Below are positions 11,119 to 38,758 of a DNA stretch of 40,585 nt, in pieces. The stretch's first letter is position 1. Each line of letters begins with the position of its first letter. The notes under the pieces were generated by a model, which did no database searches, had not been told where the DNA came from, and was given only the letters and a program-made list of their open reading frames with translations. The DNA is taken from IMG/VR virus record IMGVR_UViG_3300037518_000160, positions 1 to 40,585 of that record. One strand, written 5' to 3'. The position numbers and the translations under genes were made by a program. Source of the DNA: a virus. Taxonomy: Duplodnaviria; Caudoviricetes.

Positions 11119-12752
11119 TGGCTACGGTAGTCTTTCTCACGTCTGGCACCTCGGTCGCTACGCCCGGCGACTGGAACGACGCTGACAACTCCATCGAGGT
11201 AATTGGTGGTGGAGCGGGTGGAGAAACTAATTCCGTAACCTATGGCCCCGGTGGTGGTGGGGCGGCCTACAGCGCGATTGTCGATGAGTCGCTATCCGGC
11301 ACGATCACTTACGCAGTAGGAGCCGGTGGTGCTATTTCGACGGATGGCGGCGATACTTGGTTCAACGGAGCTAGTCTTGCAGCTTCCTCAGTAGGTGCTA
11401 AGGGTGGTGATGCCTCGGCGAACGGTGTTGCGGGTGGTGCTGGTGGCGCTTCGGCTGATGGCGTAGGAACGACCAAAAATTCTGGTGGGGCTGGGGGTTC
11501 CGCATTCGGCAGCGCTGATGTAGGTGGTGCCGGTGGTGGCGGTGCTGGTGGGCCAAACGGTGCCGGAGCCAAGGGCGGGAACCTTGTAGACGGCGGTAGT
11601 TCAACCGCCGATTCAGGGACCGGAGGCGGTGGTGCAGACGGCGGTTCCGCTGCGGCGAACTTACCAGACTTTTTTACTGCTACGGCAGGCGGAAACAACA
11701 GAAACGCTACCGGGGGTGGCACTGCTGGTTTTAACTCCGTAGGCGGTGCCGGTTCAAACGGTGGTGGCGGCGGCGGTGGCGACGGCGGCGACTTCACGGG
11801 GGGCGCTGGAAGCGCAGAGACAATATGGACTCAGACCTCGGACAGCGCAACGGCTGGTCCCGGTTCTGGTGGTGGAGGCGCATCCAGCACCGAGACTGGC
11901 ACAGCCGCCGCAGGCGCTGCGGGAGCTTTGTACGGCGGTGGCGGTGGCGGCGGAGGGTTCGACGGTGGTAACGGCGGCGTAGGCCGTCAGGGCATCATCG
12001 TACTTACTTACGAGCCTGCGGCGGCGGGCGGCGCGATCGACGGCACCGCTGATCTGGCATTCTCGAATGCTGGCGCGCTGACTGGCACGGGTGCTCTTGC
12101 CGGCGCGGCCGCGCTGGCCTTCAGCAATGCCGGGGCGCTGTCTGGCCTCGGAGAGTTGGCCGGTGCTTCGGACCTGGCATTCAGCAACTCCGGCGTGCTG
12201 CAAGGCGATGGAGAGCTTGCTGGTGCTGCAGCTCTTGCGTTCACGAACGCCGGGGCGCTGACGGGCACAGGCGAACTGGCGGGCGCGGCCGATCTCGCTT
12301 TCGAGATTACCGGCACGCTGAACGTACCCGATGGCGCACTCTCGGGCGTGGCGTCGCTTAGCTTTGCGAATGCCGGGGAACTGGCTGGAAGCGGTGCACT
12401 CGCGGGCGCGGCTGCGTTGTCCTTTGCCAATGCCGCAGTCTTGCATGGCGTGGGTGCGTTGTCCGGTGTTGCCGAGCTCGCGTTCGACGCCAGCGGCACG
12501 CTGACGCTTCCCGGCAGCATCACTGGCACGGCCGAGATCACCTTTGCGCCATCCGGAACCTTGGTGGGCAAGGGTGCGCTGGCTGGTGTGTGCGCGATCA
12601 CCTGGACGGCGAGCGCAACCGCAACGCAGGACAAGCGCGGGCGCATTGCCATCTCGGAATCTTCAACAGGAGTCGCCGTGGATAGCGTGGTGGTGAACCG
12701 TGTGGTGCTCGGTGATTCTGCGGTGAACTCAATCAGCTCGGGGGATTCGTGA
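11118..12752 (+). CDS. Glycine-rich fibre-like protein with ten C-terminal 20-aa repeats
   Basis: N-terminal IEVIGGGAGG...GRQGIIVLTY Gly-rich domain, then G-x-L-x-G-x-A-x-L-x-F repeats. Confidence 0.75.
   Translation: MATVVFLTSGTSVATPGDWNDADNSIEVIGGGAGGETNSVTYGPGGGGAAYSAIVDESLSGTITYAVGAGGAISTDGGDTWFNGASLAASSVGAKGGDASANGVAGGAGGASADGVGTTKNSGGAGGSAFGSADVGGAGGGGAGGPNGAGAKGGNLVDGGSSTADSGTGGGGADGGSAAANLPDFFTATAGGNNRNATGGGTAGFNSVGGAGSNGGGGGGGDGGDFTGGAGSAETIWTQTSDSATAGPGSGGGGASSTETGTAAAGAAGALYGGGGGGGGFDGGNGGVGRQGIIVLTYEPAAAGGAIDGTADLAFSNAGALTGTGALAGAAALAFSNAGALSGLGELAGASDLAFSNSGVLQGDGELAGAAALAFTNAGALTGTGELAGAADLAFEITGTLNVPDGALSGVASLSFANAGELAGSGALAGAAALSFANAAVLHGVGALSGVAELAFDASGTLTLPGSITGTAEITFAPSGTLVGKGALAGVCAITWTASATATQDKRGRIAISESSTGVAVDSVVVNRVVLGDSAVNSISSGDS
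12030..12632 (+). repeat. Ten degenerate ~60-nt (20-aa) tandem repeats
   Basis: GAIDGTADLAFSNAGALTGT / GALAGAAALAFSNAGALSGL / GELAGASDLAFSNSGVLQGD and so on. Confidence 0.9.
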
Positions 12753-25652: not shown

Positions 25653-25850
25653 TTAGCGGCTCCTGTTCCATTCTTCCCTGCATCGTTTCTTGCCGATGAT
25701 CTTGACAATCTCTGTCATCAAGGCATAGCGCCTCGGATTGGCGTCACCACGCGGCTCTGGATTCGGAATCTCCGACGGCCACGACCACCTGTTAAGTTGG
25801 CACCACATTTCCGCAAGCCTATGGTTACTCCAGAACTTAAGATCGGTCAT
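25653..25850 (-). CDS. Hypothetical protein
   Basis: 65-aa ORF in the leftward operon. Confidence 0.55.
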   Translation of the reverse strand: MTDLKFWSNHRLAEMWCQLNRWSWPSEIPNPEPRGDANPRRYALMTEIVKIIGKKRCREEWNRSR

Positions 25851-26922
25851 GGCGAGGCGCGACAGCGACTAGTAGCGGCCACGTTGTTTCCAGAGTGGCT
25901 TCGTCCACCATGCACTTATTCCAGATCACCAGCATGGCGCGGCATGTAGCGCGATTGATCTCCACTGGCACTAGCCTCCATCCTTCGCCCTCAGCTTCAG
26001 GCGGCGAAGCGCGGAGGGCATCTCTCTGCTCGACTAGTTTGCGTATCGTCAGAGCAACCGCGAAGTCATTGACCCATTTGCGGTCAGTGAGGAACGAGAG
26101 GCAGACTTCTTCCAAGCGGTTGAGGTCGTATAGGATGCCTTCGGCTGGCTGCTCGACGAACTTCTCAAGGGGCGCGGACATTAGCTCATCAGGCAGGCCC
26201 CAGAACACCACATTACCCTTCTTGCGCTCGGCAAGGATGCGGTCGCGCAATTTCTTCTGTGCTTCGGTTGGAGCGTCTTCGCCATCAGCCCTCGCCTCCC
26301 AAGCAGCCCACATGCTCTCAGTTGGCTTCCACTTGCCAGCGGCAGCCCATTCCTCGAATCGCTTGCGTTCGTCGCTCATTCTTTCTCCTCTCTGTTCGCC
26401 GGAGTGGAGATATCTATCTGCACGGCGAGCAGCTTCGATGATCCGGCGTTCGATCTCCACGGCGAAGTGCTTAGCGTGCTTGCTGCGTCCCCACTCTCTC
26501 GCAAACCCGAGACACAACTTACCGGCGTCGCGCAATCCATCGCTGTAGCCGCTCGCTGCGCACTGAGCCGCTACGTGCAGTGCCTCGAAAGCATCGGCGC
26601 GTTCTTTCCAGTACGCTGCCGATAGCGTCTCTCGGTTGGCGATCTCGCGGGCCTCCTTCAACTCCCGCGCGTTCTCCAGGCACAGACTTTTGAAGCAGCA
26701 GGCGTTGAAGCCGCTTTCGCGCTCGTCCTTCTCTGAGGGCGCAGCAACCGCAGGCAGTGGCTTAGTCGCTTGCGACGGCACTTTGGCATTCACCGTCTGC
26801 GGCGCTGCATTGTTCTTGCTGACTTCCAAGGCGATACCTACAACGTCCATTTCCGTCAGTTTGGCTAGCTGCTCGGAGGCCGAGGGCGCAGCGCCACCTT
26901 CGTACGGTCCTTGAGCGGTCAT
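25837..26922 (-). CDS. Mosaic hypothetical protein (likely internal start at 26379)
   Basis: Long ORF with internal SD+ATG; WRLVPVE motif near the C-terminus. Confidence 0.55.
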   Translation of the reverse strand: MTAQGPYEGGAAPSASEQLAKLTEMDVVGIALEVSKNNAAPQTVNAKVPSQATKPLPAVAAPSEKDERESGFNACCFKSLCLENARELKEAREIANRETLSAAYWKERADAFEALHVAAQCAASGYSDGLRDAGKLCLGFAREWGRSKHAKHFAVEIERRIIEAARRADRYLHSGEQRGERMSDERKRFEEWAAAGKWKPTESMWAAWEARADGEDAPTEAQKKLRDRILAERKKGNVVFWGLPDELMSAPLEKFVEQPAEGILYDLNRLEEVCLSFLTDRKWVNDFAVALTIRKLVEQRDALRASPPEAEGEGWRLVPVEINRATCRAMLVIWNKCMVDEATLETTWPLLVAVAPRHDRS

Positions 26923-33476: not shown

Positions 33477-33688
33477 TTGTCGCCCCGCGCTTCCGCGCCG
33501 CTCAGGTCGCGCTCGTGGTAGTAGGGAGCTTCTTGGTCGTCCTCCGTGACATCGCGGTAGACGAGTTCGCACCCAACGTGGACGCGGGCACTGAGCCAAT
33601 CCAGCGTGCCGACGCCGATCAGGTAGGCCGCGCCCGTGGGCGACTTGCTGAATCCGACGTACTCCGTTGTGGGTGTGTGCTTGGTCAT
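33473..33688 (-). CDS. Hypothetical protein
   Basis: MTKHTPTT...; SD GAGGAG. Confidence 0.55.
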   Translation of the reverse strand: MTKHTPTTEYVGFSKSPTGAAYLIGVGTLDWLSARVHVGCELVYRDVTEDDQEAPYYHERDLSGAEARGDK

Positions 33689-33861
33689 GCGGCTCTCCTC
33701 ACAAGTTCGTTCGTGCCCAAGTCCCAGCCACGGCGCCACTCGGCATACAGCGGGTCTTCGGGCTGGTACGGGTTGAGGTTGTTCGACAGGGCCAGCCTGC
33801 CGACCCGGGCGCCTTCGGTGAAGGCGGACTGGCGGTGCTGCTCGAGTAGGTTCGCGTCCAT
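33685..33861 (-). CDS. Rmf/CrpP-like small protein, first gene of the PL operon
   Basis: Read from sequence: MDANLLEQHRQSAFTEGARVGRLALSNNLNPYQPEDPLYAEWRRGWDLGTNELVRRAA (AFxEG...NPY...WxxGW). Confidence 0.65.
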   Translation of the reverse strand: MDANLLEQHRQSAFTEGARVGRLALSNNLNPYQPEDPLYAEWRRGWDLGTNELVRRAA

Positions 33862-34305: not shown

Positions 34306-34722
34306 CTAGGCGACAGTTGCCCTAAGACCTTGAAGCTTTGTCAGGATTCTGCGCAGCAGCGATTTACCATAATACACAAGCGAAGCGACGCGCGAAGAAA
34401 ATGAGGCGCGCGCATCGTCGGCGGAGAAGGGCGGCAGCAGTAGCGCGAATAGCAGGGCCAGCGGCGCCCCGATCCTGAGCCATGCGTTTTTCGTCTGCCT
34501 GGATTCGCCACGGCGTCCCTCAAGAAAGAACTCGATGGGCTGCCCGGTGATCTCTGCTATCGTTTGCAGGTGCCGCTTGGCGACGCGGCCGGTGGTCCTC
34601 CAGCTATGAACAGCCTGGGGACTCACGTCGCATTGCGCGGCAAGGTCGATCTGCCGGATTGGCGGGTTGTGACCATCCATCGCCGAGGTAATCCGCTTCG
34701 CCAATTCCTTTGCATCAAGCAT
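34306..34722 (-). CDS. CI-like XRE HTH repressor without an S24 peptidase domain; hydrophobic C-terminal segment
   Basis: QIDLAAQCDVSPQAVHSW HTH; divergent from cro with operators between; SD GGAG before ATG 34722. Confidence 0.85.
   Translation of the reverse strand: MLDAKELAKRITSAMDGHNPPIRQIDLAAQCDVSPQAVHSWRTTGRVAKRHLQTIAEITGQPIEFFLEGRRGESRQTKNAWLRIGAPLALLFALLLPPFSADDARASFSSRVASLVYYGKSLLRRILTKLQGLRATVA
34362..34389 (-). other. dif/cer-like XerCD site (candidate attP) inside the repressor gene
   Basis: Minus strand GTCGCTTCGCT-TGTGTA-TTATGGTAAAT versus E. coli dif GGTGCGCATAA-TGTATA-TTATGTTAAAT; XerD arm 10/11, spacer 5/6, XerC arm degenerate. Confidence 0.65.
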
Positions 34723-34785
34723 AAGTTGATTCTCCATTTTGCGGGGCAAACAAGCAATAGTTGACTTCAGGAAAGTAATGCTTTA
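34715..34785. promoter_or_regulatory. OR operators: TCAAGCATAAGTTGA (34715-34729), ACAAGCAATAGTTGA (34750-34764), GAAAGTAATGCTTTA (34771-34785)
   Basis: Same 15-bp consensus as OL; 21-bp pitch between the two rightmost sites. Confidence 0.85.
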
Positions 34786-34789
34786 TTTT
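34761..34789 (+). promoter_or_regulatory. PR-like sigma70 promoter
   Basis: TTGACT-17 nt-TATTTT, ending 7 nt before the cro ATG. Confidence 0.75.
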
Positions 34790-34796
34790 CCGCCCC

Positions 34797-35051
34797 ATGA
34801 CCAAACAAGAACGGCGGCGCCTGGCCGCTGCCCTGGAAAGGGCGGTTGAAGAAGCCGGCGGGCCGGCCGAGGTCGCCCGCTTTATCTCCGAGAAGTACGA
34901 GCCCATCACCGCGCAGGCCGTTTGGGCCTGGAACGGGAAGCCTTGCCCGCCTCGGCGCGCCGTACAAGTAGCCGCCGCCGTTGCTGCTCGAGGGGGTCGT
35001 ACATCCGCGCAGGACATTCGACCGGACCTATACGAGCCGCTCGCCGCATGA
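34797..35051 (+). CDS. cro: Cro-like (YdaS-type) HTH protein
   Basis: AVEEAGGPAEVAR...ITAQAVWAW...PPRRA...DIRPDLY. Confidence 0.88.
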   Translation: MTKQERRRLAAALERAVEEAGGPAEVARFISEKYEPITAQAVWAWNGKPCPPRRAVQVAAAVAARGGRTSAQDIRPDLYEPLAA

Positions 35052-35263
35052 GCCTTCGCGGCAAGGAAGTTCGTCCGTTCATCGGGCATACGTTTCACGA
35101 AAAGCTGGCGATTATGGCCGAGTTCAAGGACGACATGCAGCTCGCGGAACTCGCTGCGCGCATCCTCGAAAAAGGCATCGTGGCCGAGTGGCATGAGATC
35201 AGCGTACTGATAGAGCGTTCCGAGCGCCTCGGAAAGCGTTGGAAGGCCACGGAAACGAAATGA
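35048..35263 (+). CDS. Small regulator in the CII position
   Basis: MSLRGKEVRP..., ATGA-coupled to cro; possible ribbon-helix-helix. Confidence 0.55.
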   Translation: MSLRGKEVRPFIGHTFHEKLAIMAEFKDDMQLAELAARILEKGIVAEWHEISVLIERSERLGKRWKATETK

Positions 35264-35354
35264 CTTTCTCCAGCCGCCCGGGACCCTCCTTCCCCCACAA
35301 GGGCGTTTCCTCCCGGCGCCCATGGTGCTGGACCATGGCCGGGGGGATTTTCTG

Positions 35355-36425
35355 GTGAAGGCACATCCGGTCGCCAGCATCTTCCCGGCTATGGGCGAGG
35401 CCGAGTATGCCGCGCTCAAGGCGGACATCAAGGCGAACGGGCAGCGTGAGGCGATCTGGACGTGGCAAGGCCAGATCATCGACGGCAGGCACCGCGACAG
35501 GGCTTGCAGCGAGCTCGGCGTGCCGTGCCAAGCCCGGGAGCACCAGGGCGAGGAGTCTGGGCTGGTGGGCTTCGTCGTCTCGCTCAACCTGCACCGCAGG
35601 CATCTGAACGAAAGCCAGCGGGCGGTAGTGGCGGCGCGAATTGCGACTTTGCCGCAAGGGCCAAACAGGGTCACCGGAAAATCTGCCGGTGTATCGCAGG
35701 AGGAGGCCTCGGCCCTACTCAACGTAAGCGACCGGAGCATCCGGGACGTGAAGCGCCTTGAACGCGAAGCGCCCGAGTTGCTGCCAAAGGTGGAGGCCGG
35801 CGAGCTTTCCCTGAATGCCGCGGTAGGCGAGATCAAGAAACGCGAGCGCGTCGTCGCCATTACCAGCCAGAGAGATGAGCTTGCGCGGGCGCGACCCGAG
35901 GCACCGCTCGGCCTGTTCAACGTGATCGCCATCGACCCGCCGTGGCCATACGGTGAGGAGATCGACGTCACCGGCTACGACGCCATCGGGCATCGTGCCT
36001 CGAATCCCTACCCGGAGATGGCGCTTGAGGACATTACTGCCATCAAGCCGCCAGCCGCCGCAGATTGCGTGCTGTGGCTATGGACAACGCACCGCTTCAT
36101 GCGCCACGCCTTCCCGATCCTCGACGTCTGGGGCTTCGAGGACAAGGCCATCGTCACTTGGGCCAAGGACCGCATGGGCCTTGGCCGGTGGCTTCGCTCG
36201 CAAAGCGAGTTCTGCATCATGGCGGTGAAGGGTAAGCCGCCGATCACTCTCACGAACCAGACCACCATCGTCACCGGGCCGATGCGCGAGCACTCCCGCA
36301 AGCCCGACGAGTTCTACGCCATGGTCGACAGCCTGTGCCACGGCCGAAAGCTGGACTACTTCTCCCGCGAGAAGCGCGAAGGATGGGAGCAGTTCGGCAA
36401 CGACGTCGAGAAGTTCGCCGCATGA
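35355..36425 (+). CDS. ParB-like domain fused to an MT-A70-family adenine methyltransferase
   Basis: N-terminal IIDGRHR..AC, SLNLHRRHL; C-terminal IDPPW, LWLWTT, HSRKP. Confidence 0.9.
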   Translation: MKAHPVASIFPAMGEAEYAALKADIKANGQREAIWTWQGQIIDGRHRDRACSELGVPCQAREHQGEESGLVGFVVSLNLHRRHLNESQRAVVAARIATLPQGPNRVTGKSAGVSQEEASALLNVSDRSIRDVKRLEREAPELLPKVEAGELSLNAAVGEIKKRERVVAITSQRDELARARPEAPLGLFNVIAIDPPWPYGEEIDVTGYDAIGHRASNPYPEMALEDITAIKPPAAADCVLWLWTTHRFMRHAFPILDVWGFEDKAIVTWAKDRMGLGRWLRSQSEFCIMAVKGKPPITLTNQTTIVTGPMREHSRKPDEFYAMVDSLCHGRKLDYFSREKREGWEQFGNDVEKFAA

Positions 36426-36931
36426 ACTTCGCGGACATGCCTCAAGCCCAGAAGGGGGCTCTCGGCGAGGAGATTGTAGACGACTTCCTACGAGGGAAGA
36501 TGGTCATCCCTTATCGGCCACATTTCGATGGCGCGCACCCGTTCGACAGGCTGTGCGCAACGGCAGATAAGCGGACGGTGTTCATCGCCGACGTGAAGTG
36601 CAAGCCACAACGTAAGTTCTTCCCAGATACGGGCATCAACCTCAAGAATTACCACGAGTACAAGTTCATCCAAGGCAAGTACGGGTTGCGTATCTTCATT
36701 TTCTTCGTGGATGAGTCGGAAAGGAAGGTCTACGGGAATTGGATCGACCAACTTGAGGCCGACACGATCGTTGTTCTGCAAAGCGGCAAGCGCATTAAGT
36801 ATCCATTGCGGGGCGGCAAAATTATCTATTTCCCGAGGCAGAACATGCGTGACATTGCTGCCGTAGATGACGCGCGCGCGTTGAAACTAAAACAACTCTC
36901 TACCCGAAACGAGGCATACGTCTACGAATAG
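36422..36931 (+). CDS. PD-(D/E)XK nuclease-like protein
   Basis: KGALGEEIV...PFDRL...IADVKCK; ATGA-coupled to the MTase; lower GC. Confidence 0.65.
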   Translation: MNFADMPQAQKGALGEEIVDDFLRGKMVIPYRPHFDGAHPFDRLCATADKRTVFIADVKCKPQRKFFPDTGINLKNYHEYKFIQGKYGLRIFIFFVDESERKVYGNWIDQLEADTIVVLQSGKRIKYPLRGGKIIYFPRQNMRDIAAVDDARALKLKQLSTRNEAYVYE

Positions 36932-36939
36932 CTTGCGCG

Positions 36940-37114
36940 TGGGTGGACGACAGCGCGCGTTGGCAAAAGCGGTACTGGTTGTCAGGGGTGAAACACCGCA
37001 CATGGGGCTGGCGAAGCTAGCGGCCCTTCCCCGAAAAGGCTGGCGGGTGTCGAGGCTCCGGCAGAAGCGGAATCGACTGAAGGCCACCTAGTCTAAGGCT
37101 AGGTGCGCTCACCA
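36940..37114 (+). ncRNA. Structured non-coding element upstream of the replication gene
   Basis: At least four hairpins plus a terminal stem GGTGGACG/CGCTCACC within a 209-nt gap. Confidence 0.55.
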
Positions 37115-37140
37115 ACAGAGCGGATTAAAGGGCCAAGGGC

Positions 37141-37557
37141 ATGAAAGGCGAAGAAGGCTTCGACGAGTTCTGGAAAGCGTACCCGCGCAAGAAGAAGAAG
37201 GGTGATGCGCGGAAGGCGTGGCAACAGACGGCGCCGATTCGGCCGCCGCTTGAGAAGCTGATTCGTGCCGTGATTGTCGCGCGCGCGACGAAGGACTGGA
37301 CGAAGGACGACGGCGAGTTCGTACCGTACCCGGCGACTTGGCTTCGTGCGGAGTGTTGGGAAGACGTACACGATGTGGAGATAGACCGCGTGAGGGATGG
37401 CAAGGCGTGGCACGAGTCGGTGCACGGCATAGAGAAGCGGGCGAGGGAGCTCAACATGGAGTGGAACGCGCGTGAGGAAACCTTCCAGCAATTCGCGCGG
37501 CGGGTCAAAGCCGTCAGCGACTCAGGAAACGTTGTTCCCATTGGGCGGGCAGCGTGA
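37141..37557 (+). CDS. Replication initiator C-terminal domain only (O/DnaD-like helicase-loader-recruiting domain)
   Basis: FDEFWKAYPRK..KGDARKAW...FVPYPATWL...WED at the very N-terminus; in-frame TAA at 37126-37128. Confidence 0.75.
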   Translation: MKGEEGFDEFWKAYPRKKKKGDARKAWQQTAPIRPPLEKLIRAVIVARATKDWTKDDGEFVPYPATWLRAECWEDVHDVEIDRVRDGKAWHESVHGIEKRARELNMEWNAREETFQQFARRVKAVSDSGNVVPIGRAA

Positions 37558-37754
37558 CGCTGGACCAGGCGATCAAGTTGCAGGAGGAGCAGGCGAGGTG
37601 CGAGCTGGAGATGTGCTACCGGCTGACAGTGGAGGAGATAGTGGAGTACCTGCATTGGGCTCAGTCTCAATCGAGTGGTATGCCGATAAGCAGCGCGAAT
37701 ACCGAGAGGCTGGCGAGCGAAGTGCAGCGGCGTATTGGGCGGCGCGCGGGGTGA
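37554..37754 (+). CDS. Hypothetical protein
   Basis: GTGA-coupled. Confidence 0.55.
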   Translation: MTLDQAIKLQEEQARCELEMCYRLTVEEIVEYLHWAQSQSSGMPISSANTERLASEVQRRIGRRAG

Positions 37755-37789
37755 GGTGGCCGTGACTTTTCAACGAACAGGAGGTAGTC

Positions 37790-37981
37790 ATGTCATTCAA
37801 GTTCGAGATGCAGCAAGAAGTGCGACTCGTGCAGAGCGGAGAACACGGCGCAGTCATCGGGCGCGCGGAATACACTTTCGGGAACGAGAACCGGTATCTG
37901 CTGCGGTACGTTACGACGGACGGCCGACAAGTCGAAAGCTGGGAATCGGAGTCGGCGCTGCGGAATCACGTCCAAGCGTGA
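37790..37981 (+). CDS. Small SH3-like hypothetical protein
   Basis: FKFE..QEV....GE.G.VIGRAEY...YLLRY...W..ESAL; strong SD. Confidence 0.7.
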   Translation: MSFKFEMQQEVRLVQSGEHGAVIGRAEYTFGNENRYLLRYVTTDGRQVESWESESALRNHVQA

Positions 37982-37987
37982 TCTAGC

Positions 37988-38758
37988 GTGGCTGAGACCA
38001 CCGGCATCTCCTGGACCGACAGCACCTTCAATCCGTGGATCGGATGCACGAAGGTCGGGCCTGGTTGCGACCACTGCTACGCCGAGGCTCTGGACAATCG
38101 CCACCGCTGGCAGGGCGCTATGCATTGGGGCGTGGGCGTGCCGCGGATGCGGACGAGCGCGGCCAACTGGAAGAAACCGCTGGCGTGGAACGCGAAGGCG
38201 CAGGCTTCCGGCAAGCCGTGGCGGGTGTTCTGCGCGTCCTTGGCCGATGTGTTCGACAACGAAGCGCCGGACGAATGGCGCCGTGACCTGTGGGACCTGA
38301 TCGAGCTCACGCCGAGCCTAACGTGGCTTCTGCTCACGAAGCGCATCGGCAACGCCATCCGCATGCTGCGCACGAACGATTGGGCCGCGTCGACGCGCTG
38401 GAACGTCTGGATCGGCGCAACTATCGTCAACCAGGACGAGGCCTACAGGGATGTGCCGAAGCTGCTCGCCACGCCGGCGCGCGTTCGGTTTGTGTCCTAC
38501 GAGCCCGCCTTGGGGCCGGTGGACTGGAGGCGCTATCCCGGCATCGACTGGATCATCGTAGGCGGGGAAAGCACGCAGGGCGCGAAGGCTCGACCGTTCG
38601 ACTTGCAGTGGGCCTACCACACGATAGGCGATGCCGAGCAGATGGGGGCCGCGCCGTTCGTGAAGCAGCTCGGCAGTTGCAACGGATTCAAGGATCGCGC
38701 CGGCGCCGACCCGGCCGAGTGGCCTCTTGGCCTGCGCGTGCAGGAGTTCCCGAAGTGA
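37988..38758 (+). CDS. DUF5131 / phage Gp37Gp68 family protein
   Basis: ISWTDSTFNPWIGCTKVGPGCDHCYAE, LLLTKR, SYEPALG, WIIVGGES, FVKQLG. Confidence 0.92.
   Translation: MAETTGISWTDSTFNPWIGCTKVGPGCDHCYAEALDNRHRWQGAMHWGVGVPRMRTSAANWKKPLAWNAKAQASGKPWRVFCASLADVFDNEAPDEWRRDLWDLIELTPSLTWLLLTKRIGNAIRMLRTNDWAASTRWNVWIGATIVNQDEAYRDVPKLLATPARVRFVSYEPALGPVDWRRYPGIDWIIVGGESTQGAKARPFDLQWAYHTIGDAEQMGAAPFVKQLGSCNGFKDRAGADPAEWPLGLRVQEFPK

Follow-up and report, generated by a model that had tools for sequence, protein, structure and literature searches.

A structured RNA element with a duplicated word precedes a half-length replication initiator in a tailed phage

The early region of the phage genome

The window, the complete stretch of DNA analysed here (40,585 nucleotides), is a 40.6-kb tailed-phage record whose left part carries the terminase, portal and capsid genes. 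Profile matches placed divergent repressor, Cro-like and CII-position regulators at 34.3–35.3 kb, and the structured element described below lies within the early rightward operon, 3′ of a methyltransferase and a probable nuclease gene and 5′ of a NinB gene. According to the lambda sections of PMC5043065, O, P and the origin of that phage occupy the slot after PR, cro and cII. The upstream neighbours in the window are a ParB-like/MT-A70 methyltransferase gene (35322–36425) and a + strand gene for a 169-aa probable PD-(D/E)XK nuclease (36422–36931), named from look-alike clusters only, whose stop codon abuts the RNA; together (35322–36931) they likely constitute an inserted cassette ahead of the RNA. 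Methyltransferase genes also stand immediately upstream in the loci L178, L180, L190 and L222, the one 5′ of the RNA in L190 belonging to the same family.

A candidate PR-like promoter on the + strand, between the divergent repressor and Cro-like genes (34761–34789), is the likely source of the transcript; the promoter scan returned one site versus 0.9 expected by chance, and position alone favours this one. A crude scan yielded no sigma-70-like site near the element, and no + strand terminator-like site was found in 34500–38100. The G+C skew tracks gene direction and located no origin. In agreement with the first-pass annotation, which had reported neither iterons nor a helicase, loader or primase, we observed no repeat family of more than two copies in 34700–38000 and none of these three functions among those window ORFs that were scanned.

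A stand-alone C-terminal half of a replication initiator

The ORF at 37141–37557 (+ strand) encodes a stand-alone protein of 138 aa that corresponds to the C-terminal half of a phage replication initiator, as assigned by initiator profile matches covering positions 176–304 of 383 in phrog_270 (E 3e-19), 170–264 of 276 in phrog_9327 and 176–250 of 288 in phrog_9474. The ORF, the in-frame TAA at 37126–37128 and the quoted sequences were all located where they had been annotated, and the proposal that the initiator gene lacks its N-terminal half was borne out, as the matches are C-terminal only and the stop at 37126 bars an extension. A search restricted to 75–242 aa recovered 61 relatives. An upstream stop falls within 60 codons in 99 of the 175 rows carrying the domain, two rows being the present genome, and close relatives of the protein are short throughout. 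The short initiator is a protein family and not a broken gene. Its predicted model (pLDDT 81) shows likeness to phage 'replisome organizer' proteins; comparison with solved structures returned weak rows, the best being SPP1 G39P (Z 5.3, rmsd 2.2, 59 aligned).

The element extends a catalogued RNA family

Covariation among homologues and an Rfam search revealed a conserved structure and an Rfam family. The full structured element spans 36932–37124 (+ strand) by Rfam match and conservation, starting with the first base past the upstream stop codon, and comprises Betaproteobacteria-1 RNA plus a 3′ extension. Its 5′ part, 36932–37048, matches RF02932 (Betaproteobacteria-1) along the entire covariance model (1–120 of 120) with 73.1 bits versus a gathering threshold of 49.4, so that two-thirds of a module previously called undescribed was already catalogued. 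The alignment of 64 homologues showed that the conserved unit continues for ~75 nt beyond the Rfam model, to about 37124. The catalogued family is shorter by this stretch and lacks the hairpins P5 and P6, the predicted switch and the repeat, and its Rfam entry, which is of type sRNA, gives no function, phage context or consensus-line pseudoknots. We take RF02932 to originate from Weinberg et al. 2017. Betaproteobacteria-1 RNA is not named in the main text of PMC5737381, and the open-licence literature yielded nothing on RF02932 or Betaproteobacteria-1 and a general review only on structured phage-origin RNA.

An RNA-core pattern recovered 119 viral stretches, which together with earlier loci made 140, 83 of them non-redundant; 64 entered the alignment. 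From one strict pattern we estimate about 170 stretches of the family in the viral collection. No match was obtained by blastn of two element versions against phage isolates and plasmids. The cultured Acidovorax phage AP1 (OM049504.1) carries the element 40 nt behind its primase, at about 11862–12056.

Covariation defines a pseudoknotted fold

Folding energies were no better than chance (z −0.59 on the + strand and −0.96 on the − strand) and were discarded as uninformative, the structure resting on covariation instead. The structured element is real: three pseudoknots and both 3′ hairpins covary across the 64 homologues. For P2, P3, P4, P5 and the pseudoknot pairings, 90.1% of cells are paired compared to 65.0% after shuffling and 32–43% after sliding, and double (compensatory) changes occur at 19 of the 23 tested pairs, the pairs in both counts being partly chosen from the same alignment. 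Within the RF02932 part, this test took in all pairings but P1 and three of the four 36985–88/37029–32 pairs.

All helices were placed on the + strand. P1 (36932–41/36954–63) derives from Rfam and mutual information, whereas covariation delineated the pseudoknot 36950–53/36975–78, P2 (36969–73/36995–99) and P3 (37004–08/37023–27), the latter crossing P4 (37017–21/37039–43); the pseudoknot 36985–88/37029–32 lies within the RF02932 part. Hairpin P5 (37049–37077), with GGCTCC and the first copy of a duplicated word in its loop, was identified by mutual information and pair counts, and hairpin P6 (37085–37105), between the two word copies, by the pairing of its arms. Mutual information and pair counts in the 64-row alignment likewise backed P2, P3, P4 and the pseudoknot pairings. 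The core is complex and pseudoknotted, with invariant unpaired bases.

Of four hairpins suggested by the first-pass annotation, the two at 37049–37077 and 37085–37105 correspond to P5 and P6, the P6 arms pairing with −12.4 kcal/mol within a locus versus −7.8 across loci (64 rows). GGTG-AAA-CACC and GCTGGC-GAA-GCTAGC did not survive: 62.1% of their cells are paired versus 61.9% after shuffling, 216 of 500 shuffles scoring as high, and their bases go to pseudoknot helices instead. A long-range stem suggested as possibly closing these hairpins (36942–49/37106–13) also failed, its seven tested pairs reaching 56.3% versus 59.1% in shuffled alignments, with 499 of 500 as high. The + strand call held, with 70 G-U versus 21 A-C combinations among 951 cells.

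The element is located where the N-terminal half of the initiator would be encoded, as expected for a decayed coding N-terminus. This explanation is already refuted by the covariation, with its compensatory pairs, and by the occurrence of the same element behind primases and the uniformly short close relatives, and we give it practically no chance.

A duplicated, phage-specific word

A purine-rich 9–10-nt word is present once in the P5 loop and once after the last conserved motif. By repeat comparison, the first copy in the window, GGCAGAAGCGGA, is the predicted guide at 37060–37071, and the second, AACAGAGCGGA, at 37114–37124 marks the template-strand DNA predicted as its target (both + strand). 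For the repeat test, 82 loci were reduced to 68 non-redundant and 66 splittable ones. Across these 66 rows the best word match scored 7.6 within a locus compared to 5.0 across loci, the highest of 10,000 permutations reaching 5.6, and a score of at least 7 was observed in 49 loci versus 9.5% of cross pairs. In the 43 rows with common anchors the copies lie 47–65 nt apart, and identity at word positions 2–9 was 0.67–0.86 within and 0.26–0.58 across loci. The window genome is among the weaker loci, its copies matching with a 1-nt gap at a score of 6.

The mismatches between the copies show a direction. At positions 2–9 of the 43 rows, G in the first and A in the second copy was found 13 times versus 3 for the reverse (p 0.02), and at position 1 this order accounts for 31 of 33 mismatches. 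The U/C mismatches are without bias (6 versus 6); pooling both types gives 19 versus 9 (p 0.09) in rows that are not independent, so that the wobble bias is modest. We detected no same-strand complement of the word in the element, between the copies or within 300 nt, and no word copies beyond the two. When the range was widened to 1 kb, p 0.018 was reached in a single test out of six, a small effect in 24 rows that we take as noise. As the word tracks its downstream copy and lacks a same-strand partner, it would most simply pair with the opposite strand there, and the G-to-A direction would then arise from rG-dT wobble. The partner could equally be an antisense RNA or a DNA strand. Past the second copy, the G+C content drops from about 0.6 to 0.40–0.44 over 80 nt, with a slight dip to 0.50–0.55 in the window genome.

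Two other origins of the repeat were rejected. An iteron reading is opposed by the presence of two copies only, their phage-varying sequence and their 47–65 nt spacing, and a target-site duplication is argued against by the location of the first copy in the loop of a conserved hairpin.

A predicted switch between the hairpin arms

Mutual information predicts that segment Y (37077–37083, + strand) docks either on 37044–37049 or on 37097–37105, with 37077 pairing to 37049 and also to 37105. Positions 37046, 37079 and 37102 are concordant in 59 of 64 rows (GGG in 46, AAA in 13), and in a tree of the 5′ part, built on few columns, the AAA state has at least five separate origins on well-supported branches, with 13 changes in total. 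This pattern fits a segment Y that would alternate between two like arms. The concordance could instead reflect a longer RNA–DNA pairing, and the few discordant rows split both ways.

The RNA adjoins replication genes

Gene context was assessed for 44 of 52 non-redundant RNA-selected viral loci, eight near copies or overly short loci having been removed manually. In 26 of the 44, the RNA adjoins a short primase, a primase/helicase or an initiator C-half from one of three families. Thirteen of these place it 3′ of a short TOPRIM primase, the profile match being confined to the N-terminal 40%, with an SF2 helicase ahead of the primase in 11; eight place it 5′ of an initiator C-half (phrog_270 five, phrog_678 two, phrog_16167 one) and five 5′ of a primase/helicase or helicase. 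In fourteen loci none of the nearest genes is a replication gene, and four more loci are tentative. A fourth initiator family (L178, L181, L222) stays tentative, since no longer relatives of the L181 protein were found. NinB or NinG genes follow 3′ of the RNA in seven loci, and in L213 and L183 the RNA lies 5′ of recombination genes.

The RNA is not dedicated to the 138-aa protein: among 40 RNA-selected loci whose downstream flank measures 2 kb or more, only 4 carry the protein family, and close relatives of the protein use other elements.

Directly behind the RNA, L191, L203 and L229 carry a minimal HNH-like gene of 59–82 aa (phrog_4590), followed in L191 and L229 by a T7-like primase/helicase. 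In L180 a DnaB-like helicase with a LAGLIDADG/intein region (657–2663, − strand) lies behind the RNA.

The 14 loci without a nearby replication gene would suit a trans-acting small RNA, a ribozyme or an antisense-controlled RNA that is an origin-unrelated passenger of the early operon, as would the Rfam sRNA type and the pseudoknotted core with its invariant unpaired bases. Such a role is distinctly unlikely in our view: the element matches no Rfam ribozyme, and the phage-specific repeat and the occurrence of three unrelated elements in one slot would be left unexplained.

Interchangeable elements precede short initiators

The RNA of the window, termed element A, was found upstream in 15 of 59 short-initiator loci and in none of 57 full-length ones, all of them having 1.5 kb or more of upstream sequence, or, counted by groups, in 4 of 26 versus 0 of 48 (p 0.013). 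Two further elements without Rfam match, B and C, occupy this slot in 22 and 7 of the 59 loci, respectively, the profile for B having been seeded from the same loci with eight chance matches in the seed. One of the three elements, never two together, thus precedes 44 of 59 short initiators and none of the 57 full-length ones, a contrast close to one event for this family because all element-bearing short initiators fall into a single clade of the tree; 15 of the 59 have none of the three elements. Domains with 97% identity can carry differing elements (C in L092, A in L096). Among short-primase loci, picked with a profile built from A-adjacent primases, 69 of 90 have A, B or C (A 44, B 25), again never two in one locus.

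RF02932 was absent from all 28 whole records with full-length initiators. Conversely, one of 28 RNA-bearing records, L213 (record G010), combines the RNA including its repeat with a full-length DUF1376 initiator elsewhere, as judged by Pfam screens for initiator N-domains that are insensitive, only 5 of 17 full-length controls passing the cut-off. Neither A nor B was detected in 6.3 kb for a 124-aa relative in MW202674.1 or, as expected, across 8.2 kb in the cultured phage P19250A, which has a full-length relative. The first-pass proposal that a structured element replaces the DNA-binding half of the initiator draws comparative support from gene context, exclusion from full-length loci and the self-targeting repeat, although the fold proposed with it was largely wrong.

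Element B is a conserved non-coding stretch of 200–270 nt found in two forms beside short initiators and short primases (e.g. L086:2665–2990, L144:170–495, L345:3526–3850 and 40-odd other loci), some copies having a long inserted hairpin. In one form a mostly invariant word flanks the last hairpin, with both copies changed in 3 of 22 rows, which is no more than suggestive. Element C is a third conserved non-coding element of 200 nt in the same slot (L129:300–610, L005:3010–3320 and at least 12 other loci).

All 67 A and 54 B matches are co-oriented with the replication gene. This strict co-orientation with transcription (121/121) speaks against a folded single-stranded DNA origin, in which the first word of the top strand would invade the bottom strand at the second copy and load the primase or half-initiator. 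The start behind a stop codon and the three pseudoknots would also suit a nascent RNA better. The same context evidence applies to such an origin, G-T wobble would account equally for the G/A bias, and structured motifs of this kind are described in Weinberg 2017 (PMC5737381, in the portion concerned) as computationally indistinguishable from single-stranded DNA; overall we regard it as very unlikely.

All three elements share a leader, marked by a long inverted repeat with a terminal T run, which is located just upstream of A, B or C at L001:1645–1750 and in L009, L126, L139, L345 and L362; it presumably recalls antisense-controlled phage leaders. A fourth conserved non-coding element of ~280 nt, which neither profile nor pattern relates to A, B or C, lies directly behind the primase stop in L295, L299 and L309.

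A candidate RNA-opened origin

ColE1, T4 and mitochondria provide known cases of RNA-opened origins. For the window element we observed a covarying structure, a repeated word without any same-strand partner, and a context of replication genes, and on these grounds we give about an even chance to a role in cis as an R-loop origin RNA of the ColE1 kind. The element would be made within the early rightward transcript and would fold while the ribosome is departing from the upstream stop codon. Segment Y would exchange the P5 arm for the P6 arm, freeing the first word as the polymerase passes the second, and this word may then hybridise with the template strand where the second copy lies and hold an R-loop open. 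On the displaced strand, the 138-aa half-initiator would load the host helicase, a role that a short primase and helicase may take in other phages.

So read, the element would work like ColE1 RNA II yet is not a member of that family. Within the parts of PMC4412123 and PMC5043065 that deal with ColE1, the likeness extends to a folded transcript, a purine-rich word matching the template strand and a persistent hybrid, here predicted, by which one strand becomes accessible to the incoming helicase; the ColE1 hybrid forms between an rG stretch of the RNA and a dC stretch of the template (PMC4412123). In contrast, the window element matches no Rfam ColE1 family, measures ~190 nt within an operon instead of 550 nt from its own promoter and has a phage-specific word; an Rfam search found no antisense RNA, and a half-initiator or primase of the phage is retained, whereas a ColE1-type origin encodes no initiator protein. 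T4 oriF and oriG are phage origins in which a transcript opens the DNA and the region downstream unwinds easily, but they need a promoter and an unwinding element, and the T4 passages of PMC4412123 describe no folded guide RNA. The lambda origin with O and its iterons has the same early-operon place and depends on PR transcription (PMC5043065, lambda sections), whereas the window genome lacks iterons, the N-terminal half and a recognised P-like loader or helicase. The plasmid motifs ARRPOF, GEBRO and PAGEV are, in the portion of PMC5737381 devoted to them, structured, 223–349 nt long and tied to replication regions; they are plasmid-borne, form other Rfam families and do not match the window element.

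Several observations weigh against the origin reading, namely the combination of the RNA with a full-length initiator in L213, the single clade of short initiators with 15 of 59 loci devoid of A, B and C, the modest wobble bias, the 14 of 44 loci without a nearby replication gene, and the imperfect repeat and slight A+T dip in the window genome. HK022 put is a short two-stem RNA directly behind an early promoter. The element might similarly regulate transcription in cis, as a put-like polymerase-binding antiterminator or a read-through switch on downstream early genes, with the repeat acting on the 9–10-bp hybrid inside a paused polymerase. The constant location on the gene strand wherever tested, the NinB and NinG genes 3′ of the RNA, the two-state signature and the placement ahead of recombination genes in L213 and L183 point in this direction, as does the length of the word, which equals that of the normal transcription hybrid (about 10 nt in the pertinent part of PMC5043065). 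Unlike put, the element is about 190 nt long, pseudoknotted and ~2.1 kb from the candidate promoter, and no + strand terminator-like site was found in 34500–38100. Regulation would also leave unexplained why three initiator families and a primase family next to the RNA are missing their origin-binding halves, as well as the exclusion from full-length initiator loci, and we consider it an unlikely alternative.

If the R-loop origin reading is true, it assigns a function to an orphan RNA family common in phages and explains origin recognition in phages that have only half an initiator and lack iterons. A wider reading, which we put forward tentatively, is that many tailed phages swapped protein-based origin recognition for interchangeable self-targeting RNAs, at least three of them unrelated and sharing one slot, with the changeable guide word of A opening the origin via template DNA for a minimal initiator or primase, i.e. 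an RNA-guided, reprogrammable origin. Novelty would then lie in a guide word that drifts freely along with its target and in the exchange of unrelated RNAs within one slot.

Further features of the window genome

No integrase was recognised among the scanned ORFs, despite the repressor and Cro-like genes, and a 361-aa ORF at 25837–26922 (− strand) has no Pfam or PHROG match. A phage-encoded ribosome modulation factor homologue is located at 33685–33861 (− strand), matching PF04957 above the cut-off.
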